Of a stretch of 64,000 nt of DNA, positions 1 through 58,411 are shown in pieces; the stretch's first letter is position 1; each line of letters opens with the position of its first letter. The notes under the pieces are model-generated. The model had not been told where the DNA came from, searched no databases, and saw only the letters and a program-made list of their open reading frames with translations. Origin of the DNA: an uncultured bacterium (GTDB taxonomy: Bacteria > Chloroflexota > UBA5177 > JANWHV01); contig CAVSOU010000011.1 of NCBI GenBank assembly GCA_963729625.1, forward strand, positions 768,001-832,000, in the 5' to 3' direction. The translations under genes were made by a program, and so were the position numbers.

Positions 1-418
1 GCCTTACTTCACTTGACGCCTGACGTGCGCGGTTCGCGAAGTCCTTGGCCCTGCCGCGAATCCCGGTGCATTGCAGAAATCCACCACATCGCTTGGCAGC
101 GTCCGTGCATGTCCGCGGTGCCGCGCCCACACGACATGGGCACCGATCTCAGGAGAGGTTGAGGGCACTGGGATTCCACCTAGGACGCCTTGGTAAAGAG
201 GATATCCGATACACCCTGGCGTGAGGGGAGCGGGATCGCATGATCCGATGGGTATGCGCGAAGCCGGCCGGGGTGCATGGAGGGTGGCGACGGTTGCCGG
301 CATACGACGCCTTCGCAACGCACGCCCGATCGCATTACACTTGGTCATGACGGACCTTGAGATGAAGTCGTGACGCGACTGCGTATGGCCGGCAGGTTTT
401 CGGAAGGAGAATGGACCG

Positions 419-2903: not shown

Positions 2904-5900
2904 TCAGGCAGAGTCTTCGATAAGCAGCTGCGGTGCCGTAAGGATGCCCGACGGCTTCAACTGGTACTCATAGGCCCATTGGTCACCGCTCGTGCGCCAG
3001 GCGTTGGGACCGAACCAGGTCCAACGGCGGTCAGCGTTGTGGACCGGGCCGAACGCGTTGACCCGGTTGCCGTAGACCGTCACGTCTAGTGTGTGCGAAC
3101 CCGCGGCAAGCAGGCCGAGCTCCAGGCTGTACGGGGCAAACGCGATCTTGCCGGCTTGCTTCCCATCCAACGCGACGGAGAGGAGCGGGGCCTTGAAGTC
3201 CGGGACGTGCAGCACCAGAGCGCGATCCGCGGCCTCGAACGAGCAATGGTAGACGACGTTCCCGGCGTAGAATGGCAGTCCCTGCGACGTCCAGTCGCCG
3301 AAAGCCAGCTCCCGTGGAGGTGCCACGATGCGGGCGTGCCGTCCGTGCTGGACGACCCCGAAGTCTCCGAGCAGATAGCACCACTCGACGTTGCTGCGCC
3401 GGCCAAAGGGCAGGCGCAATGTCAGCGCGTGGCTGCCGGCGCGCAGGGTCGGAAGCGGCACCGTCGTTATCGCTTCGTCCACGAACCACCCGCTGACGTT
3501 GTTGGACACCGTCGCTCCGTCGATCGCGATGGCGATCTCGGCAGCGTTCTCGAGCGCAAGCAGCGGTCGCTCGACATCTATGTCGCATGCGACGGCAAAG
3601 CGTAGGTCGAGCGTGTGCGGAGCGCTCGGAACGTCGGCCTCCGACCACGGCTGAGCAATGGCGTCCATCTTGAGCGGATACCCGAGCTGCGTACGCAGCA
3701 GGTTGTCGACGCGAAGCACCTCCTCCGCAGGTTGCCAGGCGCCATCATCGAAGCGGAATTCGGCCTGATCGAACAACAGCACGTTCGGCTCGGACAGCGA
3801 GATCGGGACCGGATCGGCGATCAACCTATACTGCGACGTGTTGACGCCGGCAGGCGAGGGCTGCAGGCCGGGTATGTCGGCCGCCTGGGAGGGATCGAGA
3901 TAGACGAGCAGGCTGCCCTGGGCATAGAAGTCCCAGACGAACCGGGTCCAGCCATCGTGGATGGTGGCTGGGAGCGGACGGCTGGTGCCAGCCAGAGTGT
4001 CGAAGTGCGTCACCGCCCAGGCGCCGCGCAACGAGACACGGGCTCCCGTGCAGTTCTCGTCCCGGCTCGGATTGCAGACAAACACGGCGCGGCGGTCGCC
4101 GTCGTCTCGAACCTGGTGCAGGAGCAGATCGGCAAGCCGGCCATCGGAGCGTCTTACCTCAACCTCGCGCACCGCTGCCAGCGCCTGCAGCAGCTGCCCC
4201 CGCGTGGCGGCGATGCGGGTACAGCGCTCCGCAAGCGCAGACGCACGGTCGGACGGCATGGCATCGACAAGTGAAGGCACCTCTCCAGCAAAGATCAACG
4301 TGCCGCCGGCGGCGGAAAAACGCTCCAGCCTGTCGAGAGAAGATGAACGAATCGTGCGCAGGCCGGGCACTATCACCCTCTCATACTGCATCTGTCCGAC
4401 CGGAAGCAACGCTTGATCCGCCTTCTCGAGAGGGCACAGGGATGGGAGCAGCGACTCGGCAATGAAATCGAAATCGATCAGCCCGTGCAGCAGCCAGGAG
4501 GTCAGATCCGCGAACGCTTGCTCTCGCTCGTCTCGTTCCACAGCACTCTGGTCGAGTGGGCCAAAGCAGAGCCAATAGGACTCTATGGGATGGATCACGC
4601 CGACGTGAACGCGCGCCACGCCACGCGTCAGCACCGTGTTGAGGCGTGCGAAATGGTCCTCGATCAGCGGGTACTCGCGGTACCACGGCGATTGATAGTG
4701 GATGGAAGCAGGGTAGTCCCTCTTCGCCTCTCCCGCCATAGAAACCCACGAGAGATGCGGCACGCGCACGGTAACGCCGAGCGCAGCCTGCCAATCGCCC
4801 TGCGCCTTGTGTCCCGCGAAGTCAAAATCCCAATTAGTAACGCCGTAGAGCTCGCTAAGCACGCCTGGCCGGCCGTACTGGCGCGCCGCACTCTGCGCCT
4901 GCTTCGCCGTCGTGTATTCATGCCAGTCGCAGAGCATGTCTATACCCGGTATGTGGAATGAACGGTACGAGCGCATCGCCTCGCTCAGCGTGGCGGTCTG
5001 CGACTCGAGAAGCGGCTCCTCCATCATGTGACCGGTCAGGGCGAGGCCATGCTCGCCGCACCAGGTGCCAATGGTGTCCGCGAACGCTTGGGCGAAGCAC
5101 TCGGCCACATGATCGTGGTACTGGTAACGGGCCAACGATGGACGCCCCGCAGGAAGATCCCACACCAGCTCGGGCAGCCGGTCGAGCAGGTCGTACGCGT
5201 GTGTGCTCTGAAAGCTTTCGGCAAATGCCGACGTCCACGGTAGCAGCACGTCGATCGCATCCTCAGCCCGCGGGAGCGAAGTCTTGCGCACGAACTGCGG
5301 CTCGTCGGTGAAGATGGCCGGGACGAGCGTGCCGAAGTCTGCGCCGAGTAGCGCTGCATAGCGCTCGTGCGTGATCTCGACGAAGCGCTCGATGGCAGCC
5401 TTGTCCAGCGTGTCGACATACGTCTGGTTGTTCCACCAGGGAGACGGTGTAGCGGTCTCAAGATAGGCGTACCAGACACGACCGGCGGCGGGCGGCGCCT
5501 GGCCCTCGGTCAGCCGGCGGTAGGCAGCCAGGGCGGCGGCTTCGAGCAGGACGTGATAGCGAGCGACCAGAATCCCATTTTCGGCGTGGTTCGATCGCTC
5601 CAACCCTGCAAACCGCTGGGGGCCGACCAAGCCGCTGTAAGGCTGTGTCGTCAGGCGGAGAAACTTGGCGCGAAACCGTGGGTCCTGGGTGACCAGGCCG
5701 CCTGCGAATCCGGAGGGCCAGCGGTCCTCATCGTATAGCCAGCAGAGCATGCCCTCGGATCTTGCTTTCTCAGCACACGCCTTCACATGGCCCATGAACT
5801 CCTCGCCCAGATAAGGGGTCGCCAGGCCGGTGCGTGCGTGGATGTGGAAGCCGCCAAAACCAGCTTCCTTCAGCCAGTCGATCTGGCGCAGCAGCTGATC

Positions 5901-6062
5901 GCGGTCCAGAAGTGTGTTCCAGGACCAAAAGGGCGTCCCGCGGTACTCGGCCGTGGGGTGACGGAACAGCTCGTCGTCGAGTCGGGGCGTGCCGCTGCGC
6001 GGGTAGAGCGCATGTGGGAGTTGAGTCACGCGCGCGTCTTGCCGGTGGGGTATGATCGCCAT
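2904..6062 (-). CDS. GH106-like (alpha-L-rhamnosidase-like) glycoside hydrolase
   Basis: Motifs RGTPFWSWN, GFGGFHIHARTG, WLYDEDRWPSGFAGG, IFTDEP, LTGH, SELYG, KRDYPAS. ATG 6062 preferred over ORF-track 6110. Confidence 0.8.
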   Translation of the reverse strand: MAIIPHRQDARVTQLPHALYPRSGTPRLDDELFRHPTAEYRGTPFWSWNTLLDRDQLLRQIDWLKEAGFGGFHIHARTGLATPYLGEEFMGHVKACAEKARSEGMLCWLYDEDRWPSGFAGGLVTQDPRFRAKFLRLTTQPYSGLVGPQRFAGLERSNHAENGILVARYHVLLEAAALAAYRRLTEGQAPPAAGRVWYAYLETATPSPWWNNQTYVDTLDKAAIERFVEITHERYAALLGADFGTLVPAIFTDEPQFVRKTSLPRAEDAIDVLLPWTSAFAESFQSTHAYDLLDRLPELVWDLPAGRPSLARYQYHDHVAECFAQAFADTIGTWCGEHGLALTGHMMEEPLLESQTATLSEAMRSYRSFHIPGIDMLCDWHEYTTAKQAQSAARQYGRPGVLSELYGVTNWDFDFAGHKAQGDWQAALGVTVRVPHLSWVSMAGEAKRDYPASIHYQSPWYREYPLIEDHFARLNTVLTRGVARVHVGVIHPIESYWLCFGPLDQSAVERDEREQAFADLTSWLLHGLIDFDFIAESLLPSLCPLEKADQALLPVGQMQYERVIVPGLRTIRSSSLDRLERFSAAGGTLIFAGEVPSLVDAMPSDRASALAERCTRIAATRGQLLQALAAVREVEVRRSDGRLADLLLHQVRDDGDRRAVFVCNPSRDENCTGARVSLRGAWAVTHFDTLAGTSRPLPATIHDGWTRFVWDFYAQGSLLVYLDPSQAADIPGLQPSPAGVNTSQYRLIADPVPISLSEPNVLLFDQAEFRFDDGAWQPAEEVLRVDNLLRTQLGYPLKMDAIAQPWSEADVPSAPHTLDLRFAVACDIDVERPLLALENAAEIAIAIDGATVSNNVSGWFVDEAITTVPLPTLRAGSHALTLRLPFGRRSNVEWCYLLGDFGVVQHGRHARIVAPPRELAFGDWTSQGLPFYAGNVVYHCSFEAADRALVLHVPDFKAPLLSVALDGKQAGKIAFAPYSLELGLLAAGSHTLDVTVYGNRVNAFGPVHNADRRWTWFGPNAWRTSGDQWAYEYQLKPSGILTAPQLLIEDSA

Positions 6063-6165
6063 CTTTTCACCGCACCTCTGCTGCATGCGCAGCTCGCAGA
6101 CCTCGCGCATGCCGATGTCGCGCCAGCCCGCTATGCAGCCGCAGGAAGGCGAGCCATGCCAGATG

Positions 6166-6194
6166 TTGACAGACGCCTGTCACAGGTCTACTAT
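6166..6194 (+). promoter_or_regulatory. Sigma70-type promoter with overlapping inverted repeat
   Basis: TTGACA(6166-6171)-N17-TACTAT(6189-6194). IR TGACAG-acgc-CTGTCA at 6167-6182. Confidence 0.6.
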
Positions 6195-6672
6195 CTGCTA
6201 AGTCTCTATCATACCGGATAGCAGGTGGGAAGCCCGATGAGCCGAGCTGTGCTGTTCGAGCAGCTTCCGCGCGAGCACTCCCGGCACGCACCGGTGTGCA
6301 ACTCAGAATCTCGCCGCCGTTTCCATACTGGCATCGGCGATCGACCGGATCGAGCACCTTGGATGGGGCTGGGCCGAACAGCGCGAGTGGACACTTGGGG
6401 CGTACCTGCACCGGCAATTGCGGGTCTTCCCAGGCACCACGGTGCTGACTCCCGACGACTGGCAGTTGTCGTCGGCCATCACAGCCTTTTCGATCGCGGC
6501 GTCGAAGCCCTGCGCTTGCACACGTTCGGGACGACGTGGCGTTTCGCTGTCCATCCCTTTCCGGACCGTCGGGGAGACCGGCGCGTCGTATGAGCGGCAC
6601 AGGTGCCCGCTGGGCGACTGTCGCGTCCGGCGGTCTCTTCAGCTCGTGATGGAAGGTTGGGAGGGTTGTCTT

Positions 6673-7854
6673 GTGGAAGACTCGCGCACCGTCGTCGATG
6701 CATTGATGCGTGGCGGGAAGCCCGGACGCGTGGGATTGGTGGACGGCCCGTGGCCGGAAACCGTGCTCGCCTGGATCGAGCAGGGCTATCCCATGCGGGA
6801 TCGGAAGATCCATAAAGAGGTGGGCGAGCACTATTGGCGACCAGAGGACGGCAGGTGGGAGGAGGTCGAGCGGAGCGGCGACTACGAAGAGCCACAACCG
6901 ATCTGGGAGCACTTTGACTACGACATGGTCGGCGTGGGCGGTTGGTTCGATTGGCATCCTTTGCGCGACTGCGACGAGCTTGTCGAGGAGCACGGCGACT
7001 GGGAGGTACGGCGCAACGGCTCGGGCGCCTCGCTCAAGTTCTGGAAACACCGGTCAGGCACCCCCGAGCACATCGGCTTCCGCATGACCAGCCGCGACGT
7101 CTGGGAGCGCGATTACCGCCCGCGGCTGCTGGAATGGGATGTCGAACGGTTCGGGAATCTGGACGAGACGCGCAAGGCCCTTGCCGAGGCCAGGGCGGCC
7201 GGCAAGTGGACGCACTACGGGCATCAGTTCATCTGGGAGAATATGCGGCAAAGCCTGGGTGATATCACACTGTATGAGAGCTTGCTGCTCGATCCCGCGT
7301 GGATTCATGATTATTGCCGGGTGTACACCGACATGTACAAGCGCTATTTCGGCTACCTCATCGCGAACGTGGGCAAGCCCGACGGCATCTGGCTGTACGA
7401 AGACCTAGGCTACAAGAACGGACTGTTCGCCTCGCCAAAGGTGCTGGGCGAGCTGATCTTTCCGTATTTTCACGAGCTGGTGGAGTTCTTCCATAGCTTC
7501 GACCTGCCGGTGGTGCTGCACAGCTGCGGAAGCACGGCGCAGGCCTTGCCGCTGATCGTGGACGCCGGCTTTGACGCCCTCAACCCGATGGAACGCAAGG
7601 CGAAGGGTAACGATCCTTTAGCGTTCGCCGCGCAGTATGGCGATGAGCTGGCGTTCATCGGCGGGCTGGATGTCCGCGTCTTCGAGACCAACGACCGGGA
7701 GATTATCAAGCGCGAGGTCACCACGTACATCGAAGGCATGAAGGCGCGCGGTGCCCGCCTGGTGTTCGCGTCAGATCACTCAATCCCGCCTACTGTGACT
7801 TACGCGACGTACAAGTACATTGTCGACACGTACCGGGACCTGATGGCATATTGA
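6673..7854 (+). CDS. Uroporphyrinogen decarboxylase / MtaA-CmuA methyltransferase superfamily protein
   Basis: Motifs YEDLGYKNGLFASP, VVLHSCG, GFDALNPME, FIGGLD, ASDHSIP. GTG 6673 follows a GGAGGG SD. Confidence 0.85.
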   Translation: MEDSRTVVDALMRGGKPGRVGLVDGPWPETVLAWIEQGYPMRDRKIHKEVGEHYWRPEDGRWEEVERSGDYEEPQPIWEHFDYDMVGVGGWFDWHPLRDCDELVEEHGDWEVRRNGSGASLKFWKHRSGTPEHIGFRMTSRDVWERDYRPRLLEWDVERFGNLDETRKALAEARAAGKWTHYGHQFIWENMRQSLGDITLYESLLLDPAWIHDYCRVYTDMYKRYFGYLIANVGKPDGIWLYEDLGYKNGLFASPKVLGELIFPYFHELVEFFHSFDLPVVLHSCGSTAQALPLIVDAGFDALNPMERKAKGNDPLAFAAQYGDELAFIGGLDVRVFETNDREIIKREVTTYIEGMKARGARLVFASDHSIPPTVTYATYKYIVDTYRDLMAY

Positions 7855-7890
7855 GCGGCCCGCGGCAGCTTTCCCGCACTCACCGGTGTG

Positions 7891-8085
7891 CTAGCGCAGG
7901 AACAGCTGTACGACTGGCACGACGACATCCGGCCTGCGAACCGGCAGCTTGAGCAGCGCCGTGTCCCCGCAGGGCTTGCCGGGATCCAGATACGCGATTT
8001 GCTGCGGCCGCGCGCTCGACGTGCTGAAACCGACCTCGCTGCCATCAAGCAGTAGCTGCGCGTATTCGATGCGGCCCGCCAGGCT
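7891..8085 (-). pseudogene. Remnant resembling the C-terminus of a GH29 alpha-L-fucosidase
   Basis: LAGRIEYAQLLLDGSEV...LLKLPVRRPDVVVPVVQLFLR* matches the recalled C-terminal pattern of bacterial GH29 enzymes. No catalytic domain upstream. Confidence 0.55.
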
Positions 8086-8292
8086 GCACTCAGGATGCGT
8101 GGGCGGTAGCAGCTTCAACGCCACGTCACGTCCGAGTAATGGCAGCGGTTTCAGCAGCTTCTCGCGTGAACCAGGAGTTGGCAAGAGCGTTCCACAGCAT
8201 CCCGACGCGCCAACTGCCCATCGGCCCAGCGCAGGTCGGCGCACTCCTGCGCCCGCAGGCCGGCATGCGCACCGAGCAGCACCAGCACGCGA

Positions 8293-8683
8293 TCAGGGCA
8301 GGGGATCACGCGCTGGGTGCATGACCCAGCTCAGACCCATCGCCTGTGCACCCCGGTAGAAACGTCCGTCCACGGTCCAGAGCGTCGTGCCTGCCTGCTC
8401 CGCCAGCGCGGCATACGCCATGTCAAAGAGCGAACCTCGACGGCTGCGATAGCTCAACTCAATGCCCCGCGCGTAGATATCACTGCGATAGTCGCGCACG
8501 CTGCCCATCAGGCAGCTGTTCCCACTGCGGGGTCAGCGATATAGTGCTGGTCCCAGTTTGATGCACGCGGTCGACCAGCGCAATGTCGTAGGCTGCGACC
8601 GCCTGCACCAACTCAATGGCTTCCGTCGGCAAGAGCGTTGGCAACGGTGGATGGGCCAGACACAGCCGGTAGAGCGCGTTGGC
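8293..8683 (-). pseudogene. PIN-domain (VapC-like) toxin pseudogene, 5'-truncated and interrupted
   Basis: ANALY...EAIELV in one frame and SLFDMAYAALAEQAGTTLWTVDGRF in another. Removing 8491-8569 joins the two frames. Confidence 0.65.
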
Positions 8684-9037
8684 CTTCGGGCTTGCGTGGT
8701 AGCTGGTGCTCAAACGGTCGGCAAGTCCATCCGGCCCGCATCTGCGTGGTTCCCGGCCAACACCGCTCGCCAAGCGGCCGGCTGCGACTGCGCGGTCCAA
8801 GGAAACTGCTCCGCAGGCTAGCGATGTGCTATATCCTGCAACCAGGCTGAAGGTTGCCGGACTGGCTACCTCAGATCGGTTCATTTCCGTCGGTTCCGTC
8901 ATGTGCCCCTCTGGCGATACTTGGCGGGCGAGGATATTGTCAGAGGTACTGGGCACGAAGAGCGGTGCCACGCTGGCGGCCCGAAGCACGGCACGATCCG
9001 CGGCAGCGCAGAAGAGAGGAAAACGAGGACTGAAGCC

Positions 9038-42536: not shown

Positions 42537-42961
42537 TGGCGCTGACTCCCTTCGCTCGCGGCTACCCGGTTGCGGACACAGGATATGCCATACTGGGGAG
42601 CCACCTAGCTACAGTATCGCCACGTCCTGGCAATTATCGGTAACGACGGTCAGGGTCAATCGCGTCGCAGGGCTCGCCGCGGGCGCAGGGTTGATCGCAG
42701 GCGCGACGACCACGCTACAGGTTGATCCGGGCCAGGACAGCGCCGCGCGGAGTACATTAGGGAAGCAAGGCCGGTTGTGACTCTCATGGCAGGCAGCGTC
42801 GCCGTTTCTCGCCGAACGAAAGGATGATCCGGCGCGCGGCCAGTGCCCGCCGGTGTGGCCCGCAGAATAGCGTCGTGAAGGGCCTTGAGACCGTAGGCTA
42901 GTGAAGAAGCATAGACGGCACGCTCGTAGTGCGAGAGTCCCCTGTCCGAAAGAGAGCATCA

Positions 42962-43729
42962 ATGGCCATTGACCTGATCATCGAAGCCCGCGACCTCAAG
43001 AAGACCTACGTCACTGGCGCACTGAAGGTGCAGGCGTTGCGTGGCATCGATTTCGCCGTCCAGCGTGGCGAAATGGTGGCCATCATGGGGCCGAGCGGCT
43101 GCGGCAAGACAACCCTGCTCAACTGCCTCTCCGGTCTCGACGATTTCGACGAAGGCGAGGTCCGCATAGCAGGCAGTTTACTCAAGGACATGAGCGATAA
43201 CCAGAAGACCGATTATCGTGCCAGGAAGATGGGCTTCGTCTTCCAGGTCTACAACCTGCTCCCTGTCTTGAGCGCGGTGGAAAACGTGGAGCTGCCGCTT
43301 CTTGTGAGCGGCGTCCATCCCAGGGCGGCCCGGCAGCGGGCGCTGGCCGCGCTTGCCACCGTCGACCTGGAGAAGTGGGCCGGTCACCGCCCAGCCGAGC
43401 TCTCCGGCGGGCAACGCCAGCGCGTCACCGTCGCGCGCTCGCTTGTAAACGAGCCGGCAATTGTCTGGGCCGACGAGCCGACCGGCGCGCTCGATTCAGA
43501 GGCCTCCGGTGGCATCATGGACCTGATGTGCCACCTCAATAAAGCGAACGGCCAGACTTTCGTGGTGGTGACACATGCCCTGGAAGTCGGCGAGCGCGCA
43601 GACCGCATCGTCAGAATGCGCGACGGGCACATCGAGGATGCAGGCATGGGCCAGGGTGCGCATGGAATGACAGCCCTGCTGGACGATCATCGCGCTACCA
43701 CGCAGTCGCGAAGGGACGATGAGCGATGA
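42962..43729 (+). CDS. ABC ATP-binding protein (LolD/MacB-like)
   Basis: [35 protein letters not shown]. Confidence 0.93.
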
Positions 43730-46700: not shown

Positions 46701-47202
46701 GCATGCCATCGCGCTGGCGCTGGGCAAAACCTTCTTGCAGAATGGGCTGGACGTCAAAGAATCGCAGAAACAGTTTGACAGTAATCAGGCAGTCTCGATC
46801 GGGCTGTTCGACCTGCTCGAGGGCTTCATGGGGCTGGGCTTGATCGTCGGAATTGCAGCCCTGGGCGTCGTCGCGACCAGGGCCGTGGTCGAGCGCCGCC
46901 AGGAAATCGGCATGATGCGGGCTATCGGGTTCCGGCGCGCAATGATTCGGACCACGTTCCTGCTGGAATCGAGCTTCGTGGCCATTCTTGGCACGCTGCT
47001 CGGCATCGGTTTGGGCCTGCGTGTGGCCCAGAATCTGATCGACGAGATCGCGAAGACCAATAGCAGTATTGCCTTCACGGTCCCCTGGCTGCAGATCGTG
47101 GCGATCGTGGCGATCGCGTATGTCGCCTCGCTCATCACGACCTACCTGCCGGCGTGGCAGGCCTCGCGCGTCTACCCGGCGGAAGCATTGCGCTACGAGT
47201 AA
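43726..47202 (+). CDS. Large duplicated FtsX/MacB-type ABC permease
   Basis: 1158 aa. Two ERR.E.GM.RA.G motifs and two large extracytoplasmic domains. ATGA overlap. Confidence 0.9.
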
Positions 47203-47590
47203 GCGGCCCGCAGCGCTTTTCTGAACGTTCCAGCCCGACTGCAAGTGGAACGTGTACAGGTTCGTGCCGGGTGGTCCGCCATTCATGATCGCCAGCGCGA
47301 TAGTGTGGCGGATCTGTGCCATCAGCGTGTCGCTCGTCTTGTACAGGAACTGGCCATTCACGGGAATGCAGCCAGACCACCAGCCAGGCTACTTCGCGGT
47401 AGCAGCCCCACCAGCAGTGGTTGGCCCGATGCTGTCAGACGTGCCCGCCCGAAAATCCGGGTGCGACGGAACCGCTTGTCAAGTGAGGTACGATGATCTC
47501 AGCTGAGTACCGCTGGAACCATGCTCGTGATGCTCAGGCAGACGCTCAGTGAGCAGAACCACTTTGGGGCGCTGGACGAGGCAGCTTGCT

Positions 47591-48637
47591 ATGAGACCGT
47601 TCGCCGTGTTCGCGATTCTCGGCGCGCTGCTACTCAGCGGCTGCGGATCGTCGAATACCTCAAAGCCGGGGGCCGGAAGCGGTACCAACGTGTCGACCCT
47701 GGCAAGCGTGCCGTCCTGGCCCCTGCCTGGACTGTCGCCAAGCGTGACGGTCACGCGGCAGGACTTCGCAGCCGGGTTCGCGGGAGCGCTGCTCACGCAG
47801 ATCGAGCGGCAGGGGCGCTTCACGCGCAGCGCCGACCCAGCCCGGCCTCAAAGACTTGACCGGGGGGCGTTGCTGTCCGTGCAAGGTCTGTCGCCATCGG
47901 CCCACGTTCCCTTTTCCTCCAATGTGTTCCTTGGTCCCCTGGAATATGAGCCATCTGCCGTGTCTGGCTTGTCGCTGTCGTCCAAGCTCAATGCCGAGTT
48001 CGTGAAGCACTATTGCCTGCCCGCCAGGGGATCGGGCCGCTGCGCGAAGGTCGGTCGCGCCACGGGCATCATCGCCCTGCTCACGCCGGAATCGATTCGC
48101 AGCCAGGCACGCGGTTTCACCCGCGCGAGCGACACGGACTACGGTCACGCGTACGGAGGGGCAGTACTCATTCGGCCACCTGGATATCAGACCGGGAAGG
48201 GAACGACGCAAGCGGGGCATCAGCTGGGATACGAGCTTGGCGGTCCCGTGAAGGACGCAAGGAATTTCGTGACCCAGTTCGACCTGGCCAATGCTCCAGC
48301 CCAGAGCAGCCTCGAGAACGCGGTAAAGGATGAGCTGACGCCGTTCAGCACAAGCTCGGGTAAGTCCAGCGGCGTCACCGTGTTCCTTCGCGTGACGCCG
48401 ATGTATCGGGAATCGTGCGTCGTTCCATACGAAGTGCACTACGAAGCCGTTGGCTCCGATGGCTGGCAATTGCCACAAACGGCAGTGGGGTTGGCGGCAA
48501 AATGGCTCAGGTTCGAGCGCACAAATGACGGTATCACCGTCGCGATCATCCGCAACGCAGTACAGTCTGGGCACACATGGCTGGTGCCCGGCCAGGATCC
48601 GAAGGCGACCTGCGTTCCCAGCGGTTACTCGGGGTGA
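47591..48637 (+). CDS. Lipoprotein with DNA/RNA non-specific (beta-beta-alpha-Me, Endonuclea_NS_2-like) nuclease domain
   Basis: Lipobox LLLSG-C (Cys codon 47642). GRATG, AGHQLGYELGG, RNFVTQ....N...SLEN.V, RVTPMY. Alternative start GTG 47549. Confidence 0.75.
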   Translation: MRPFAVFAILGALLLSGCGSSNTSKPGAGSGTNVSTLASVPSWPLPGLSPSVTVTRQDFAAGFAGALLTQIERQGRFTRSADPARPQRLDRGALLSVQGLSPSAHVPFSSNVFLGPLEYEPSAVSGLSLSSKLNAEFVKHYCLPARGSGRCAKVGRATGIIALLTPESIRSQARGFTRASDTDYGHAYGGAVLIRPPGYQTGKGTTQAGHQLGYELGGPVKDARNFVTQFDLANAPAQSSLENAVKDELTPFSTSSGKSSGVTVFLRVTPMYRESCVVPYEVHYEAVGSDGWQLPQTAVGLAAKWLRFERTNDGITVAIIRNAVQSGHTWLVPGQDPKATCVPSGYSG

Positions 48638-48639
48638 TC

Positions 48640-49254
48640 ATGGCGCTCATGGATCTGCGGCAACGTCTTCAGCCGCCAGCTCGGCCAATGGACGCGGGTT
48701 CGCCGTCGGACTGGGCCGCCGCCGAGTCTGCGCTTGGAATCAGCTACCCGCGCGATTTTCAGGAGTTCATCGGCACGTACGGGAGCGGCGCCATCGACGG
48801 CATCATCAGCGTGATCAATCCGATGAGCGTCAGCTGGCGTGGTGCACCGGCGTTCGACACCTTGCCTCACGCGTTGGACGCCTTGCTTGCCGCGTTCAGC
48901 CCCTGTGGCAGCGCGCCCGAAGCGTGGCTATACGGGCTCGCGTCCACGCTGGCTGTCTGCAGCGGCTGGGAATCTCTCACGCTCGCCGGACGGAGCACGC
49001 CGATGCCGGTCCGGCTCTGGCCCGAGCTTCCGGGGCTGTACCCGTGGGGCCGTGGCGATGCCGGCCAGGCCCTGCTCTGGTGGACGGAAGGGATGCCTGA
49101 GCAGTGGCCCGTGGTCCTTGCCGATCCGTCGGAAGGGCTGCGCACGTACGGCATGGACATGACGAGCCTGCTGGCGGGGTGGCTTTCCGGATCCGTCGTG
49201 CTGGAGTATCTGCCGCGAGTCCACCGGCCGCGCTTCAGCCAGGAGGAGGCCTGA
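48640..49254 (+). CDS. SMI1/KNR4 (SUKH) family immunity-like protein
   Basis: DWAAAESALGISYPRDFQEFIGTYGSG, GLYPWG...G..LLW...PEQWPVV. Starts 2 nt after nuclease stop. No signal peptide. Confidence 0.8.
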   Translation: MALMDLRQRLQPPARPMDAGSPSDWAAAESALGISYPRDFQEFIGTYGSGAIDGIISVINPMSVSWRGAPAFDTLPHALDALLAAFSPCGSAPEAWLYGLASTLAVCSGWESLTLAGRSTPMPVRLWPELPGLYPWGRGDAGQALLWWTEGMPEQWPVVLADPSEGLRTYGMDMTSLLAGWLSGSVVLEYLPRVHRPRFSQEEA

Positions 49255-49328
49255 CGCCACGTTCCGATGGATACATACGGCACCGCGAAGGCCAGCCAGG
49301 ACGTGAAGCGCAATCTCGCACGGTGCAT

Positions 49329-49910
49329 CTACTTATTCCCCTCACGGACCGGGTTGGTGAGGCCGTGCCGAATGAGGCCGGTCAAACCGAGCTTCACGGA
49401 TTCGACGTCGGCGACTCCCTCGGAAATGGCCCAGTACGCCATGCCGTCGAGCAAAGTCGCCAGCATCGGCACATCGTACGGTCCATGGTCTGGGCGAAGA
49501 TATGGCTCTACAAGGGCCGCGATGCGCTGACTGAGCAGGTGGCGGCGCCGGCGCTGGAATTCCGGCGCCCCGCCGCTGTGCAGCACGGCGAGAAAGCCCG
49601 GCTCGTCGATCAGGATGTCAAACGCGGCGGAGATTACCGAGTGATCCCCTTCCGGAATGGCGACCGTGCGTGCCGCGACAACGACCGGCTCCAGGCGCGC
49701 CCACAACCGCTCCAGACCGTTGTCGAATAGGGCTTCCAGAATCGCCGACGTGGTGGCGAAGTACGTGTAGATCGTCGGCCGAGACGTCCCCAGCCGGGCC
49801 GCGATGTCGCCCATGGTAACCTGCTCGAAGCCTCGCTCGATAAACAACTGCTGCGCTGCCACAAGGATCTGCTGTCGCCTGTCACTCGCGCGCAAAACAC
49901 CGTCCTCCAT
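49329..49910 (-). CDS. TetR/AcrR family regulator
   Basis: RRQQILVAAQQLF.ERGFEQVTMGDIAARLGTSRPTIYTYF. Confidence 0.92.
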   Translation of the reverse strand: MEDGVLRASDRRQQILVAAQQLFIERGFEQVTMGDIAARLGTSRPTIYTYFATTSAILEALFDNGLERLWARLEPVVVAARTVAIPEGDHSVISAAFDILIDEPGFLAVLHSGGAPEFQRRRRHLLSQRIAALVEPYLRPDHGPYDVPMLATLLDGMAYWAISEGVADVESVKLGLTGLIRHGLTNPVREGNK

Positions 49911-49996
49911 CGGGCTTCTGGGGCCGTCTGAACACCTTCGGCCACTGCCAAAGCGCATCGGTACGCCACGGCGTCGTGGACAGATCGTAATCTCCT

Positions 49997-50075: not shown

Positions 50076-52598
50076 ATGATTCGACTCGTTGGAGGTGCCG
50101 CGTACCGAGCGCGTTGGCTGGTGCTGGTCCTCTGGCTGGCGGCCGTCGCTGCCGTGTCGCTCGTTCTACCCGATCTCGGCTCCGTGGTGACGCACCACGC
50201 GGTGCCAAACCTGCCGAGTTCGTCGACGGTCATCCAGGCGGAAGACCTGCTCGCGCATGTCGATCCTGCCCACCGGGCACGCAGCACGGCAGTGCTCGTG
50301 CTGCAGAGCGAGCACAAGCTGACTCAGCAGCAGCACGCCTACTTCTCGCAGGCAGTGGCGCGCATCGGCACGCATGCGGCGGCGTACAATCTCTCGAGTA
50401 TCGTCGATGCCGGCACAGCCGGTGCGGCGCTCGCATCGCAGTTCGTCAGCAAAGATGGACGCACCGTGTTAGCCATGGCTGGTTTCCCAACCGATGGCAT
50501 GAGTGACGCCACCATGAACGGCGTGGTGGCGCTGCGCGCCGCGCTGGCGAATCCACCGTCCGGCGCCCAGACATACGTCACCGGTGACGCCGCGATCAGG
50601 AGGGACACGGTCACCACGAGCCAGGACGGCGTGCAGAAGACCGCGGGCGTGACGATTGTCCTCGTCCTGGCCATTCTTCTTATCGTCTACCGCGCGCCGC
50701 TCGCCGCGCTCGTGCCACTTGTTGCTATTGGACTGAGCTTTCTAACAGCATCTCGCATCGTTGCCTCGCTTGGCGATCGAGGCCTGCCGGTCTCGTCCTT
50801 CACGCAGACGTTCCTCATCGCCGTCCTGTTCGGTGCGGGCACCGACTACTGCCTGCTCATCCTGTCACGTTTCCGCGAAGAGTTGTACCTGGCGCACGGC
50901 GACCGGCACGCCGCGCTCGATCGCACGCTCGCGGGTGTCGGCAAGACGGTTATCTTCAGCGGGCTTACCGTGCTCATTTCGTTCACAACCCTTTTCTTCG
51001 CGGGTTTCGGCATCTACCGGAGCGCCGCCGGGGTCTCTATCGGACTCGCCGTTACCCTTCTTGCATGCTTCACGTTGGTACCTGCCATGCTCGGCGTGCT
51101 CGGCCCGTACCTGTTCTGGCCGCGGCACCCCAAGCCCGGCGCCGAACACCCCGACTCACGCATCTGGGGCTGGACCGCGCGTGTTGCGATCGCGCGGCCC
51201 TGGATCACCGTGGCGGCCACCGTGGTGATCCTGGCGCCGATCGCGCTGCTGTTCCGAGGCCAACGCACGTTCGACCCGCTCGCGGAGTTCAGCAGCTCGC
51301 TGCCGTCGATCCAGGGTCTTCACGCGGTGTCCTCGGGGTTCGGTACCGGACGCGCACTCCCCATGGCAATCGTCCTGCAGACAGGGTCGAGCATGCGCAC
51401 GCCCGAAGGTCTCACGACGATCGACCGCATATCACAGACATTGGCCGCCCAAACCACGGTGCAGGAGGTGGACAGCGCGACGCAGCCGGCCGGAAGCACC
51501 CTGTCCGCCTTCCAGCTCAGCACGCGCGACGCAGAGGTGGCCCAGGCTCTGAGCACGCTGCATGCCGGCGCGGCGAGCCTCGGTTCAGGCTTGAGCGCGT
51601 CGGCGAGCCGCGTGCAGCAGATTCAGCGGTCAGTTGCCGCTCTCGGCGGCGGCGCGCAAGCAGCGCACGCTCTGGGCGATCTGAACGTCGCGCTCCAGAA
51701 ACAGACACTCGGCGCCACACGCCTGGCGACGGGCACAGTCCAGCTTCAGAGCGTACTCGCGGCGAGCTCGGGCGCGGCGATGCAGGGTGATCCGGGCTTC
51801 TATGTGCCCGAATCCGTCATCGCGCGGAGTGCACCACTGCGCGGTGCGCTCGACGCCTACGTCTCGTCGGACGGGCACATCGCCAAGTTCACGGTGATCC
51901 TCAAGGGAAATCCTTACGCGGAAACCGCGGTTGAGGCCGTGCCGCGGCTCGTCCAGGCCGCGCAGGTGGCGCTCTCCGCCAGTCCGATCAATGCTGGCAC
52001 TGTACGTCCGGCCCAGACGACGCCGGAGCAGTGGGATCTCAACAACGTATCTCAGGATGACTTCCTGCGCACGGCCTTGCTTGTCGTGGCCACCGTGCTT
52101 GTGCTGCTGATCGTGCTGCTCCGCTCGATCGTGGCGCCGCTCTACGTCATCTTCTCGCTGGTAGGAGCCTACTTCGTCACCATGACGTCGGTTGAGTGGA
52201 TCTACGTCGACCTGGCGGGCAAGCCGGGCCTGAGCTGGGCGGTACCCTTCTTCATCTTCTTCCTGCTTATCGCGCTTGGCGTCGACTACAGCATCTTCCT
52301 GATGTCCCGCTTTGACGAGGAGTACGTGCGCCGGCCGTCGGCAGGTGCTGCAATGCAGGCAGCCTTGCGCGCGATGGGCGTCGTGATCTTCTCCGCCGCA
52401 TCGATCATGGCGGGCACGTTTGGCTCGCTCACCGCCTCCGGCATTACCACACTGCTGGAGATCGGCACGGGCATCATCATTGGCCTGCTGCTCTACGCCG
52501 TGGTCATGCTCGGGTTCTTCGTCCCGGCCTGTGCCGCGATCGTCGCGCGCGGCCACCACTGGCCGCTCAAACATGCGGCCGAGGGCGCAGGCGCCTGA
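50076..52598 (+). CDS. MMPL family transporter with helical heptad insert
   Basis: GAGTDYCLLILSRFREE and ALGVDYSIFLMSRFDE. L..G heptad segment in second loop. SD AAGGAG. Confidence 0.93.
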   Translation: MIRLVGGAAYRARWLVLVLWLAAVAAVSLVLPDLGSVVTHHAVPNLPSSSTVIQAEDLLAHVDPAHRARSTAVLVLQSEHKLTQQQHAYFSQAVARIGTHAAAYNLSSIVDAGTAGAALASQFVSKDGRTVLAMAGFPTDGMSDATMNGVVALRAALANPPSGAQTYVTGDAAIRRDTVTTSQDGVQKTAGVTIVLVLAILLIVYRAPLAALVPLVAIGLSFLTASRIVASLGDRGLPVSSFTQTFLIAVLFGAGTDYCLLILSRFREELYLAHGDRHAALDRTLAGVGKTVIFSGLTVLISFTTLFFAGFGIYRSAAGVSIGLAVTLLACFTLVPAMLGVLGPYLFWPRHPKPGAEHPDSRIWGWTARVAIARPWITVAATVVILAPIALLFRGQRTFDPLAEFSSSLPSIQGLHAVSSGFGTGRALPMAIVLQTGSSMRTPEGLTTIDRISQTLAAQTTVQEVDSATQPAGSTLSAFQLSTRDAEVAQALSTLHAGAASLGSGLSASASRVQQIQRSVAALGGGAQAAHALGDLNVALQKQTLGATRLATGTVQLQSVLAASSGAAMQGDPGFYVPESVIARSAPLRGALDAYVSSDGHIAKFTVILKGNPYAETAVEAVPRLVQAAQVALSASPINAGTVRPAQTTPEQWDLNNVSQDDFLRTALLVVATVLVLLIVLLRSIVAPLYVIFSLVGAYFVTMTSVEWIYVDLAGKPGLSWAVPFFIFFLLIALGVDYSIFLMSRFDEEYVRRPSAGAAMQAALRAMGVVIFSAASIMAGTFGSLTASGITTLLEIGTGIIIGLLLYAVVMLGFFVPACAAIVARGHHWPLKHAAEGAGA

Positions 52599-55684: not shown

Positions 55685-58411
55685 ATGGCAATGAAGGCGG
55701 CGAGCCCTACCGGCACTACCATGCGATCCGACGATACGGGCTCTGGGCCTCTCGCCCAGGACCTGTTCCTGGCAATCGCCGACCGCTGCCGCCGGCTGCC
55801 GGACGCTCCCGTGGTCGGAGGCCAGGAAGGTCTCCGCTGGAAGACACTGGCCGGCAGCCAATTCCTCGATCGCGTGGAAGCGCTGGCCCGCGATCTGCAC
55901 GCTCGCGGCGTCACCGCGGGCAGCCGCGTCGTGCTCTGGGTGCCGAACGGGTGGCGTACCCCGGCACTCTTCGCCGCCATCTGGCGCCTCGGCGCCATCG
56001 CGGTGCCTTTCGACCGCGAGATGAACGTTGAGGCAGCTCGTGCCATCCTCGATCGCGTGCGTCCGGCACTGGTGATCACCGGGTATAACCAGCCGCCGTC
56101 GTGGACCTCTGAATCGACCGCTGAAGAATGGTGGGAGCCGGGTCGCGCGGCGGGAATCGCTGCCCAGCCAGAGCCCGATGGGGACCGTGTAGCCGTGATC
56201 TACTTCACGTCCGGCACGACCGGGGCGCCCAAGGGCTGTACCCTCACGCATCGCAACCTGCTCTCTCAAGCTGCGATCATGCCGCGGTTGGTACCGCTGA
56301 AGCCCGGCGATGTTCTTGGCAGCATTTTGCCGCTCTCGCACATCTACGAGCTTAGCTGCGGCATGATCTACCCTATCGTGCAGGGCGCCCACGTTGCGTA
56401 TATCCCATCCCGCAAGGGGCCGGATATCGTGCGGGTGCTGAAGGAGCAGCGTGTCACCCACATGGTGGTGGTCCCGCAGGTACTCAGCCTCATGGGCGGC
56501 GCTGCCGAAGAGCGGCTGCGGAAGCTGCTGGGCGATACACGCTACCAGCGCGTCCTGCGACTGGCGGATCGCCTGCCCATGCAGTGGCGCCGTCTGCTCT
56601 TCTGGCCGATTCTGCATCGTCTCGGCGGCCGTCTGCGGCTTATCGCCAGCGGCGGTGCCGCGCTGAACCCCGAGGTACAGCGGCTTTGGGAGCGCATGGG
56701 TATCCGCACCGTGCAAGGGTACGGCGCGAGCGAATGCTCGCCGATGATCGCCTGCGGCCATGTGGACGGCAGTACGCCCTATGGGACCGTAGGCACGCCC
56801 GTTCCAGGGGTGGAAGCACGCATAGACGAGAGCGGCCAGTTGCTTATCCGTGGCCCTAACGTCATGCAGGGCTACTGGGAGGACCCGGAGCGCACGGCCC
56901 AGGTCATGACCGCCGACGGCTTCTACGCGACAGGCGACATCGTGGAGCGCGATACCCACGGGAACATCACGATCATGGGCCGTGCCCAGGAGCTGCTCGT
57001 GCTTCCTTCTGGGATGAATGTGTGGCCCGACGATGTAGAAGATCAGCTGCGGAAGCTCGACATGGTCAAGGATGCCGTCGTACTTCTGGTTCCCGGTGCT
57101 TCGGGCGGCGCGACATTGCACGCCTATCTGCTGCCTGCCGGCGCGCGCGACCCACAGGTCATCCCCGGAATTGTCGCCACCGCCAACGGGCATCTCGCGG
57201 TGCATCAGCGCGTGGCGACTGCCTCATGGTGGCCGGAAGACGACTTTCCGCGCACGTCTACGCTCAAGATCAAGCGACGTCTGATCCCGATTCCGGACCG
57301 TCTGCAAGCGCACGCGCAATCGACGCAACAGGTCGATGTAACCCAGGCAGGCGACGATCCGGTCGCCGCGGCTCTGCGCGCGGTGACCACCGGCGCGGCC
57401 ACACGGGACGAACAGTCGCTGGCTGAGCTGGGGCTGGACAGCCTTGGTCTGGTCGGCCTGCTTGTCGAGATCGAGAGCCGGACAGGTCTCACCATCCCCG
57501 AAGGGACGCTCGAGACGTCCATGACGCTCGCCGCGCTGCGTCTCGCCGTTTCGGCGGTCGCGACCGGAACGGAGTGGCCCGGGATCGGCGACACACCCAC
57601 CGAAGACCGCGTGAAGCGTGCCGAGGAAGCGCACACGTGGTTGCCTCCGCTCTGGCTGTACACCAAGGCGCGCGCGCTTCGCCGGCTGCGGACGCCAATT
57701 GACATGCTGCATCGGCGCGCGGTGCCAGAAGTCATCGTTCTCGGCACGGAGCACCTCGAGATACTGCGTCGCGGCGCCATCGTGGCCGGCACTCACCGTA
57801 GCTTCGCGGACGTGCCGACGATGCAGCGCGCGGTGGCTGAGGCTGCATCGCGTGACATCGCCGACCGGCTCACTGTTGCCGCCTCGTCGGTCATTGTCGG
57901 GCGGGCGGGATGGCTTGGCCGTCTCACTACCGTTGGCTTCGGCCTGTTTCCGTTGCGCCAGTATGGCGGCCAGGAAGAGAGCCTGCGCCGCCTCGCTCAG
58001 ATCGCCGACGCGGGCAACTCGATCCTGCTGTTCCCCCAGGGTCACCACACTGACCCGGAAGACGAGCGACAGGCGCTGCCGGCCGCTGATTTCAAGCCGG
58101 GCATCGGCCACCTGGCCGCCGATCTGGACCTGCCGGTTTTACCGTTCGGCATGGCGGGTACCGAACGTGTCGTGGCGCCTCGTACGCCTGAGAGCTTCAC
58201 CGGAGTGGTCATTGCCGGCATTCCGGTGCGCTATCACCGCCAGCCGGTGGCCGTGGCCTTTGGAGCACCAATGCAGCCTGAGGTGAGCGAGAGCGCCGCG
58301 GCATTCGTCCGGCGGCTGCAAACCGCCTGTTACGCCCTGGCCCGACAGGCTGAAGCCGCGCTGGCCGATCGCTCCTCCTCGGGCGCCCGAACAGGGTTGC
58401 GCAAGGAGTAG
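55685..58411 (+). CDS. AMP-dependent acyl ligase - acyl carrier protein - PlsC-type acyltransferase fusion
   Basis: YFTSGTTGAPKG, QGYGASE, TGD. Carrier motif LGLDSL. Acyltransferase HRSFAD (HX4D), FPQG, FKPGIG. Confidence 0.88.
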   Translation: MAMKAASPTGTTMRSDDTGSGPLAQDLFLAIADRCRRLPDAPVVGGQEGLRWKTLAGSQFLDRVEALARDLHARGVTAGSRVVLWVPNGWRTPALFAAIWRLGAIAVPFDREMNVEAARAILDRVRPALVITGYNQPPSWTSESTAEEWWEPGRAAGIAAQPEPDGDRVAVIYFTSGTTGAPKGCTLTHRNLLSQAAIMPRLVPLKPGDVLGSILPLSHIYELSCGMIYPIVQGAHVAYIPSRKGPDIVRVLKEQRVTHMVVVPQVLSLMGGAAEERLRKLLGDTRYQRVLRLADRLPMQWRRLLFWPILHRLGGRLRLIASGGAALNPEVQRLWERMGIRTVQGYGASECSPMIACGHVDGSTPYGTVGTPVPGVEARIDESGQLLIRGPNVMQGYWEDPERTAQVMTADGFYATGDIVERDTHGNITIMGRAQELLVLPSGMNVWPDDVEDQLRKLDMVKDAVVLLVPGASGGATLHAYLLPAGARDPQVIPGIVATANGHLAVHQRVATASWWPEDDFPRTSTLKIKRRLIPIPDRLQAHAQSTQQVDVTQAGDDPVAAALRAVTTGAATRDEQSLAELGLDSLGLVGLLVEIESRTGLTIPEGTLETSMTLAALRLAVSAVATGTEWPGIGDTPTEDRVKRAEEAHTWLPPLWLYTKARALRRLRTPIDMLHRRAVPEVIVLGTEHLEILRRGAIVAGTHRSFADVPTMQRAVAEAASRDIADRLTVAASSVIVGRAGWLGRLTTVGFGLFPLRQYGGQEESLRRLAQIADAGNSILLFPQGHHTDPEDERQALPAADFKPGIGHLAADLDLPVLPFGMAGTERVVAPRTPESFTGVVIAGIPVRYHRQPVAVAFGAPMQPEVSESAAAFVRRLQTACYALARQAEAALADRSSSGARTGLRKE

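Follow-up and report, generated by a model that had tools for sequence, protein, structure and literature searches.

A predicted lipid-anchored nuclease with a SUKH-type partner, related to polymorphic-toxin tips, in an uncultured Chloroflexota bacterium

SUKH genes are found beside NucA-family nucleases, and nuclease toxins of this kind that carry a plain signal peptide have been proposed to leave the cell by Sec; their delivery was proposed from genomics (PMC3113570 and PMC3482391, in the sections drawn on here). In other described systems an exported nuclease is accompanied by a small cytoplasmic blocker. Anabaena NucA has the inhibitor NuiA and barnase has barstar (PMC13522737, as excerpted), and in B. 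subtilis the membrane nuclease NucA is paired with the inhibitor Nin (PMC3025545, as excerpted). Here we describe a two-gene locus from an uncultured bacterium (GTDB lineage Bacteria; Chloroflexota; UBA5177; JANWHV01). It lies in a stretch of 64,000 nucleotides, referred to as the window, which covers positions 768,001 to 832,000 of the forward strand of contig CAVSOU010000011.1 (assembly GCA_963729625.1). The first gene encodes a nuclease predicted to be a lipoprotein (P0001), and the second, immediately downstream, encodes a protein of the SUKH type (P0002). The reading that we prefer, and to which we give about an even chance, is that the pair consists of a nuclease tethered at the cell surface and a safety inhibitor kept in the cytoplasm.

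The closest described systems are the Sec-exported NucA-family/SUKH toxins (PMC3113570 and PMC3482391, again for the sections used). The locus described here shares with them a nuclease of the same superfamily, a conventional signal peptide and a SUKH gene immediately downstream, and the nuclease domain is likewise found as a tip of RHS and type VII secretion system (T7SS) proteins. It differs from them in that the signal peptide ends in a lipobox, and in that nothing stands between tether and nuclease, neither repeats nor a pre-toxin domain nor a protease for processing. Among the 150 matches listed no tip polymorphism was seen on the leader here, and the genomes concerned are Chloroflexota-type metagenome genomes. 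An earlier model-made annotation of the window (the original prediction) had called the pair a candidate new contact-dependent toxin module. The words 'new module' proved too strong, since the pairing of SUKH with a NucA-family nuclease having a plain signal peptide is already present in the part of PMC3113570 cited above. What is known is thus a Sec-exported NucA/Endonuclea_NS_2 nuclease with a SUKH partner, and what appears to be new is a form in which the enzyme is accompanied by a lipobox and a tether and by nothing else. A narrow literature search, covering articles without their supplements, did not find a stand-alone lipobox-tether-nuclease with SUKH in a probable monoderm.

The coordinates of all features are collected in Table 1. 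Both reading frames are intact at the positions originally given for them. The lipobox LLLSG-C18, the Ser/Gly tether, the QAGH motif with its His at codon 48218, the four further Cys and a SUKH-type gene without signal peptide 2 nt downstream, all described in the original prediction, were found as stated. The ATG at 47591 was preferred over an upstream GTG at 47549 because the homologues begin at the same Met. Residues 1–18 of P0001, MRPFAVFAILGALLLSGC, comprise a positive n-region, a hydrophobic core and a lipobox at the end, and read as a textbook lipoprotein signal with Cys18. Lipidation itself is suggested by this pattern, by its conservation in homologues and by the genes for Lgt (two copies) and LspA in the genome. 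L-x-G-C was present in 8 of the 12 homologues in which the N-terminus could be seen, and the remaining four carried a hydrophobic anchor without Cys. Across the nuclease family, membrane anchoring therefore appears to be conserved, but the chemistry of anchoring does not. Export by Tat was considered and rejected; no twin-arginine motif was found, even when translation was begun at the upstream GTG.

When compared with Pfam, P0001 matched PF13930 (Endonuclea_NS_2) with an E value of 1.1e-5 and 26.1 bits, 0.9 under the curated cut-off of 27. The same Pfam family matched 16 of 16 members of the nuclease family at E <= 0.01, the best at 4.7e-12. Among PDB sequences, the profile of the family also matched Spd1, a nuclease of S. 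pyogenes, with an E value of 3.2e-5. In this alignment H210 falls on the His of the RGH motif, and N234 on an Asn of 2xgr that is replaced by Ala in 2xh3. The motif in P0001 reads QAGH rather than DRGH. TQAGH210, R224-N225-F226-V227-x-Q229, N234 and E242 are invariant in the 16-sequence family alignment, while H210, G218, N225, E242 and Y272 are invariant in the 72-sequence alignment that takes in distant relatives.

An AlphaFold2 model of the nuclease, built from the 72-row alignment, had a pLDDT of 89.0 and a pTM of 0.86, with only residues 1–24 disordered. In Foldseek the first match to this model was Spd1 (5.8e-7), followed by Sda1, EndA, S. agalactiae NucA, EsaD and EndoG. The VIA-align matches each covered about residues 40 to 320–339 of the model. 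They were Sda1 (Z 14.0, rmsd 3.2, 176 aligned, model 40..339), Spd1 (Z 13.1, rmsd 3.2, 166 aligned), S. agalactiae NucA (Z 12.2, rmsd 3.2, 162 aligned), EndA (Z 11.8, rmsd 3.1, 155 aligned), EsaD (Z 10.9, rmsd 3.0, 150 aligned), Anabaena NucA (1zm8; Z 9.8, rmsd 3.7, 165 aligned; Z 9.6 for the NucA/NuiA complex 2o3b) and the Serratia nuclease (Z 9.6, rmsd 3.4, 159 aligned). As residues 40–339 align as a single domain, the 'unknown ~110-aa region' that had been set apart in the original prediction belongs to the nuclease fold, of which it makes up the N-terminal half. The mature part (residues 41–348) is modelled as one beta-beta-alpha-metal nuclease fold of the Endonuclea_NS_2 kind, similar to Spd1, Sda1, EndA and EsaD. 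Its N-terminal half carries, in the model, family-specific insertions and no separate delivery or escort domain. P0001 is predicted to cleave DNA and/or RNA.

The streptococcal nucleases EndA, NucA, Spd1 and Sda1, which are the best matches in structure and sequence, share the catalytic His and Asn with P0001, and EndA resembles it also in having an N-terminal membrane anchor. The motif is DRGH or NRGH in the streptococcal proteins and QAGH here, and P0001 has about 125 extra residues in insertions as well as four conserved Cys. We know of no dedicated inhibitor gene for these four streptococcal nucleases. Besides the lipobox Cys, P0001 contains exactly four (C142, C151, C276 and C341), each at least 90% conserved. 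Cys142 and Cys151, on neighbouring strands, and Cys276 and Cys341 probably make up two disulfide pairs. Four conserved Cys fit a nuclease that works outside the cytoplasm.

The N-terminus of P0002 is not hydrophobic, and the protein is without a signal peptide. Its Pfam matches were to SUKH_5 (E 4.1e-5, 23.8 bits, cut-off 27), SMI1_KNR4 (E 0.004, 18.2 bits, cut-off 25.4) and SUKH_6 (E 0.013); all were below the cut-offs and confined to the first ~55 residues. The matches to the PF13930 and SUKH families expected for the two proteins thus fell just under the curated cut-offs in both cases. Among the 14 members of the P0002 family, SMI1_KNR4 was matched in 11, SUKH_6 in 10 and SUKH_5 in 9, again always below the cut-off. 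In a protein-language-model atlas, 24 of the 30 clusters nearest to P0002 were of the SMI1/KNR4 type (score 0.95). The AlphaFold2 model of P0002 alone was poor (pLDDT 60), and with this low-confidence model Foldseek gave nothing at E <= 0.001; Knr4 (8aj2) stood at rank 4 with a TM of 0.31, and 2icg at rank 36. No PDB chain was matched by the profile of the SUKH partner at E <= 1. There is good but not complete support for P0002 being a divergent SUKH (SMI1/KNR4) protein. As its start lies 2 nt after the TGA of the nuclease gene and behind a GGGG run, translational coupling of the two genes is probable.

The complex of nuclease and SUKH protein was modelled, as the original prediction had proposed, and the partner was placed over the active site. 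The scores of the runs were 0.77, 0.90 and 0.90 (median 0.90), compared with 0.00 for the best of three controls. Of 157 solved complexes, 116 attained the mark used for this score, against 2 of 215 mismatched pairs; these counts serve only as a rough benchmark, since the alignments were custom-made. At least 91% of the contacts agreed between the runs, and the pLDDT of the partner was at least 88. On the nuclease side the interface comprised residues 201–210 (including His210), 230–236 (including Asn234), 239 and 242. On the SUKH side it comprised the invariant G-D-x-G (138–142) and D-P-x-E (163–165), together with residues 187–193. Recall of a known complex by the model is unlikely because no PDB chain resembles the SUKH partner by sequence. 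The modelling therefore supports binding, with the SUKH partner predicted to cap the active site of the nuclease. Conservation at the interface was the same as in the rest of the protein (0.70 vs 0.66 for the nuclease, 0.60 vs 0.62 for SUKH) and did not discriminate between the readings considered below.

In the preferred reading, the nuclease would be exported by its Sec-type signal peptide and lipidated and processed by Lgt and LspA. The mature enzyme would then be held by its lipid at the external side of the cytoplasmic membrane, with a linker of about 22 residues in between, and with His210 as the general base, Asn234 as a metal ligand and two disulfides bracing the fold. There it would cut nucleic acid at the producer's own surface, either free or matrix DNA or RNA, or incoming DNA. 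The SUKH protein would stay in the cytoplasm and block the catalytic face, serving as a safety catch for nuclease that folds before export, like NuiA and Nin. The original prediction had argued that a nutritional surface nuclease would need no cytoplasmic immunity. This is contradicted by NucA/NuiA, NucA/Nin and barnase/barstar, in which, as here, an exported nuclease is combined with a small cytoplasmic blocker. Anabaena NucA also shares the fold of the nuclease model, and the inhibitor here is predicted to sit on the active site. The present inhibitor is of the SUKH type and unrelated to NuiA, Nin and barstar, so that the likeness is one of function and not of homology. Moreover, the nuclease here would be tethered by a lipid, whereas those of the NucA/NuiA and barnase/barstar type are released.

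A special case of this reading is a DNA-entry nuclease of natural transformation that cuts incoming double-stranded DNA and is kept in check by its inhibitor. EndA, which is membrane-attached and surface-exposed (PMC3025545, as excerpted), is among the best fold matches with its Z of 11.8. B. subtilis NucA, as noted above from the same source, has a protein inhibitor, and the two-gene layout with an N-terminal anchor agrees with such a role. However, no competence genes were found in the ~24 kb around the pair (a genome-wide search for ComEA, ComEC and pilus genes was not made), the pair occurs in only one of the five genomes of the genus, and the partner is a SUKH protein and no relative of Nin. 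We regard this special case as quite improbable.

The close family is small, with 15 nuclease clusters (54–74% identity) and 13 SUKH clusters (49–72%). Nearly all of these homologues are metagenomic, and the two named ones are Chloroflexota metagenome-assembled genomes (NCBI). A full-length copy was found only in the bacterium's own genome, whether the search covered the class (21 species genomes) or a sample of the phylum (401 genomes); one other genome of the genus gave a weak partial match only. Each of the two genes is present as a single copy. A possible second SUKH gene at C11:323137 was rejected, being a weak match inside an unrelated 961-aa frame. Neither protein was matched in the defence-system and phage libraries, and the plasmid collection gave only three weak partial matches.

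Linkage of the two genes was examined in the relatives. Only one relative locus (L005) was recovered from the genome, metagenome and viral contig collections. By tblastn it holds the 3' end of a nuclease homologue (its final 14 codons), a spacer of 181 nt and then the SUKH gene. As the 14 codons sit at the start of the contig, the reading of this locus as an orphan immunity gene was rejected. Three more nuclease/SUKH pairs were found on longest contigs of equal size (6616, 2749 and 15438), which is indirect evidence of linkage. For most relatives co-occurrence was judged from such equal sizes, by which the unmatched cases are undecidable; these are the nucleases P0008 (12,221 nt), P0013 (60,090) and P0014 (14,262) and the SUKH proteins P0023 (24,769), P0027 (5,957) and P0020 (4,090). 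It may be noted that the nucleases P0010, P0013 and P0014 form a subgroup with an extra, very basic C-terminal tail of ~60 residues. For them no P0002-type SUKH was found on equal-sized contigs, and they may have another partner. The spacer of the L005 locus (47–227) contains a perfect 15-bp inverted repeat (108–122 / 129–143, 6-nt loop), which may represent either a small palindromic element that has inserted there or a hairpin with a regulatory role. It has no copy in the window, where two matches with three mismatches correspond to the chance expectation.

The single copy, the sporadic distribution and the Pfam scores slightly below the cut-offs could also be explained by an inactive relic, namely a toxin-tip cassette stranded behind a chance signal sequence. 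Against such a relic stand the two intact frames, the invariance of all catalytic residues, the conserved anchor, the confident model and the 15 and 13 homologues (49–74% identity), which are full-length. We consider it most improbable.

An exhaustive profile search with the nuclease family gave 255 proteins at E <= 0.001. Beyond the family itself, the best matches lay at the C-terminal ends of large proteins (906 to 2340 aa), referred to here as giants. Four of them (P0038–P0041) matched nearly the whole mature nuclease, with E values of 2.6e-61 to 2.5e-46, followed by P0042 and P0043 (6.0e-28 and 4.6e-25). In most giants, too, the cassette starts at the W-x-L-P-G motif. All four Cys are kept in P0038–P0041, and C276 is missing from P0042 and P0043. 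The giants carry fn3, lectin/laminin-G and Kelch domains, and by a crude hydrophobicity rule the N-termini of P0038–P0040, P0150 and P0173 are signal-peptide-like. The body of P0038 (residues 1150–1650) recurs in seven other proteins, of which four end in a PF13930 tip, two in a PF14040 tip and one in an unassigned tip. The PF14040 tips lie at 2813–2880 of 2908 and 1457–1538 of 1566 residues and belong to a DNase family unrelated to PF13930. Apparent swapping of tips on a shared body, as seen here in sequence comparisons, is a hallmark of polymorphic toxins. As a group, P0038–P0043, P0173 and P0186–P0191 are ~900–2900 aa long and have a common fn3-containing body with varying heads (Kelch, RCC1, SBBP/DUF7948, lectin/laminin-G). 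These Chloroflexota-type giants with swappable DNase tips appear to be an undescribed group.

More distant relatives were found at the ends of RHS proteins (5 of the 20 long matches scanned; two of these begin with a WXG100_2 domain) and at the end of one PT-HINT/T7SS-signal protein. This nuclease family is thus widely used as a polymorphic-toxin tip, in giants, RHS and T7SS relatives alike. Within the same genus there is an RHS-type locus near dnaA (L017, G004:C12:1-12000), fragmented over ~4255–8845, with RHS repeats and a beta-propeller at 4255–5535 and the C-terminus of the RHS core at 5764–7794. Its PF13930 tip (E 2e-12) is displaced by a frameshift and is followed by a 273-aa open reading frame with a P0002-like N-terminus (BLASTP 4e-6). 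The locus may have decayed to a pseudogene, or it may be misassembled. Judged from these sequence relationships, the pair appears by descent to be a polymorphic-toxin tip with its immunity gene.

Such a descent brings in a second reading, in which the pair is a delivered interbacterial toxin. The lipid-anchored or shed nuclease would enter the cytoplasm of neighbours by contact, vesicles, nanotubes or other uptake and degrade their nucleic acids, and SUKH would provide kin immunity. We hold this reading to be possible, though somewhat doubtful. Its components are those of the preferred reading, a nuclease that is exported and tethered and an inhibitor that stays in the cytoplasm; what differs is the target. 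The linkage of SUKH to a NucA-family nuclease is a classic signature of delivered toxins, forms with a plain signal peptide included (PMC3113570 and PMC3482391, for the sections drawn on). That PF13930 tips are toxins has been proven for RhsA of Dickeya, EsaD of S. aureus and YeeF of B. subtilis, and in EsaD/EsaG, YeeF/YezG and RhsA/RhsI, as here, a PF13930 nuclease has an adjacent immunity gene (PMC9990079, in the part cited). EsaD, YeeF and RhsA have LXG/WXG or RHS parts and use T7SS or the type VI secretion system, whereas P0001 has no such part. EsaG belongs to an immunity family other than SUKH.

The same reading is favoured by the giants, in which the complete cassette, beginning at W-x-LPG, forms the C-terminal end of proteins with a signal-peptide-like N-terminus (E 2.6e-61 to 4.6e-25) and in which the shared body bears alternative tips. 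It is favoured also by the RHS-type relative in the genus, by the sporadic distribution and by RHS giants in the bacterium's own genome, from which it follows that the organism engages in such conflicts. The genome holds at least two of these RHS-repeat giants, with open frames of ~2930 aa (G000:C8:~560900-563500 and C17:~87200-89100). A third RHS region was seen at C11:878688-879930, ~47 kb past the end of the window.

Several findings speak against delivery. The mature protein consists of the nuclease fold alone, without a receptor-binding or translocation region, and only the signal peptide, the lipobox and the 22-residue linker precede the fold; an N-terminal trafficking or filament part is absent. 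Anchoring to the producer's membrane is conserved, and the probable disulfides would suit an extracellular enzyme better than a protein that has to unfold across a membrane. The original prediction had proposed a search for alternative tips on the same leader; none was found among the 150 matches listed, of which those to the N-terminal part only were two fragments (140 and 75 aa). One further small form that is lipobox-like by a crude rule, P0138 (202 aa), was found among the other 148 representative matches, so that among the nearest relatives this architecture is uncommon without being unique. Each tip that could be identified on the related giants was a DNase. No orphan tips, further tips or immunity gene arrays stand beside or after the pair. 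As had been noted originally, no delivery domain or secretion gene is visible, and none of the latter was found within ~10 kb; a search of the genome gave no WXG100 gene. Taken together, the lack of a carrier, receptor or translocation part and the family-wide anchoring make action at the producer's own surface most likely.

The transfer by contact or vesicles that the original prediction had suggested found no support here. Its view of the organism as a probable monoderm agrees with our search, as no Omp85 was found in the genome (87% complete), and an outer membrane is therefore probably absent. In the interbacterial lipoprotein-toxin literature listed, as far as the excerpts go, only myxobacterial SitA and lipidated CdiA appear. 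SitA resembles P0001 in being a lipobox toxin with a cytoplasmic immunity protein (PMC5562445 and PMC8546572, as excerpted). According to the same excerpts, SitA travels between the outer membranes of diderms by way of TraA/TraB, and polymorphic toxins follow a conserved N-terminal part. No such polymorphism was seen here, and the genome in which Omp85 was not found was not searched for TraA/TraB. Outer-membrane exchange in myxobacteria, the sole known route for a lipoprotein toxin, needs an outer membrane, which counts further against delivery. That a lipid-anchored toxin passes between monoderms by membrane contact, vesicles or nanotubes as a counterpart of SitA, with SUKH as kin immunity, or that a nuclease on the outside of the membrane serves to destroy incoming foreign DNA such as that of phages, is in our view unlikely.

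Several points weigh against a surface-tethered nuclease with its own safety inhibitor. According to the part of PMC3113570 drawn on here, what SUKH proteins are mainly known for is immunity to delivered toxins, and the known safety-catch inhibitors NuiA, Nin and barstar have folds unrelated to SUKH. Outside the family the nearest relatives are swappable tips of giants, more distant ones are RHS, PT-HINT/T7SS-signal and WXG100-RHS toxins, and the RHS-type relative in the genus is followed by a SUKH-like open reading frame. A sporadic spread is more in keeping with a conflict gene than with a housekeeping enzyme. Pfam searches found no phosphate, nucleotide-salvage or competence genes beside the pair. 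Finally, nuclease activity, lipidation and SUKH binding are all predictions from sequence or model.

The genes around the pair are included in Table 1. Both flanks have homologues in the remaining four genomes of the genus, where they are neither adjacent to one another nor beside the pair. The pair is therefore accessory, and as the flanks are never adjacent in those genomes, a clean insertion site is not definable. FtsX/MacB-type transporters include lipoprotein-handling systems. A link of the ABC/FtsX genes to the lipoprotein nuclease is conceivable but not supported, since homologous transporters occur in the genus without the pair. A simple scan of 47150–49450 found no promoter or terminator, and the repeats in the locus were just short pairs at chance level. 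Further downstream in the window (55685–58411) lies a gene for a 908-aa protein with an AMP-binding enzyme, a phosphopantetheine-attachment site and an acyltransferase domain. It adjoins an MFS transporter and looks like a lipid- or metabolite-acylating enzyme unrelated to the pair.

Table 1. Features of the nuclease–SUKH locus and of its neighbours, with positions in the window.
Feature	Position	Strand	Remarks
Shine-Dalgarno-like sequence GGACGAGG	47574..47581	+	9 nt 5' of the nuclease start; putative, read from the sequence
Predicted nuclease lipoprotein gene (P0001)	47591..48637	+	348 aa plus stop; ATG 47591, stop 48635-48637
Predicted signal peptide and lipobox L-S-G-C18, residues 1-18	47591..47644	+	Sequence pattern, conservation
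Ser/Gly/Thr/Pro-rich tether, residues 19-40	47645..47710	+	Composition; pLDDT 44-64; variable in the alignment
DNA/RNA non-specific nuclease fold, residues 41-348	47711..48634	+	Single fold, from the W-x-L-P-G motif on; predicted
Cys142 and Cys151 codons	48014-48016, 48041-48043	+	Probable first disulfide
His210 codon	48218..48220	+	Predicted general base; (D)RGH-type motif, here QAGH
Asn234 codon	48290..48292	+	Predicted metal ligand; invariant in the 16-sequence family
Cys276 and Cys341 codons	48416-48418, 48611-48613	+	Probable second disulfide, which would tie down the C-terminal tail
Gene junction	48631..48639	+	GGGG run, stop TGA 48635-48637, 2-nt gap
SUKH-type inhibitor/immunity gene (P0002)	48640..49254	+	204 aa plus stop; ATG 48640
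ABC ATPase	42929-43729	+	Pfam; upstream neighbour
FtsX-type permease, 1158 aa	43726-47202	+	Pfam; 388-nt gap to the nuclease gene
TetR regulator	49329-49958	-	Pfam; convergent, directly downstream
MMPL transporter	50076-52598	+	Pfam

The nuclease–SUKH pair is small, well modelled and easily testable under either of the two main readings. If it is a delivered toxin, it would represent a new toxin route in single-membrane bacteria that needs only Sec and lipidation. Should it prove to act at the surface, then a toxin tip, together with the SUKH protein that gave immunity to it, would have been re-used as an exo-enzyme with its own brake. This would blur the distinction between 'toxin-immunity' and 'enzyme-inhibitor' in annotation, which is now often made from the SUKH neighbourhood alone.

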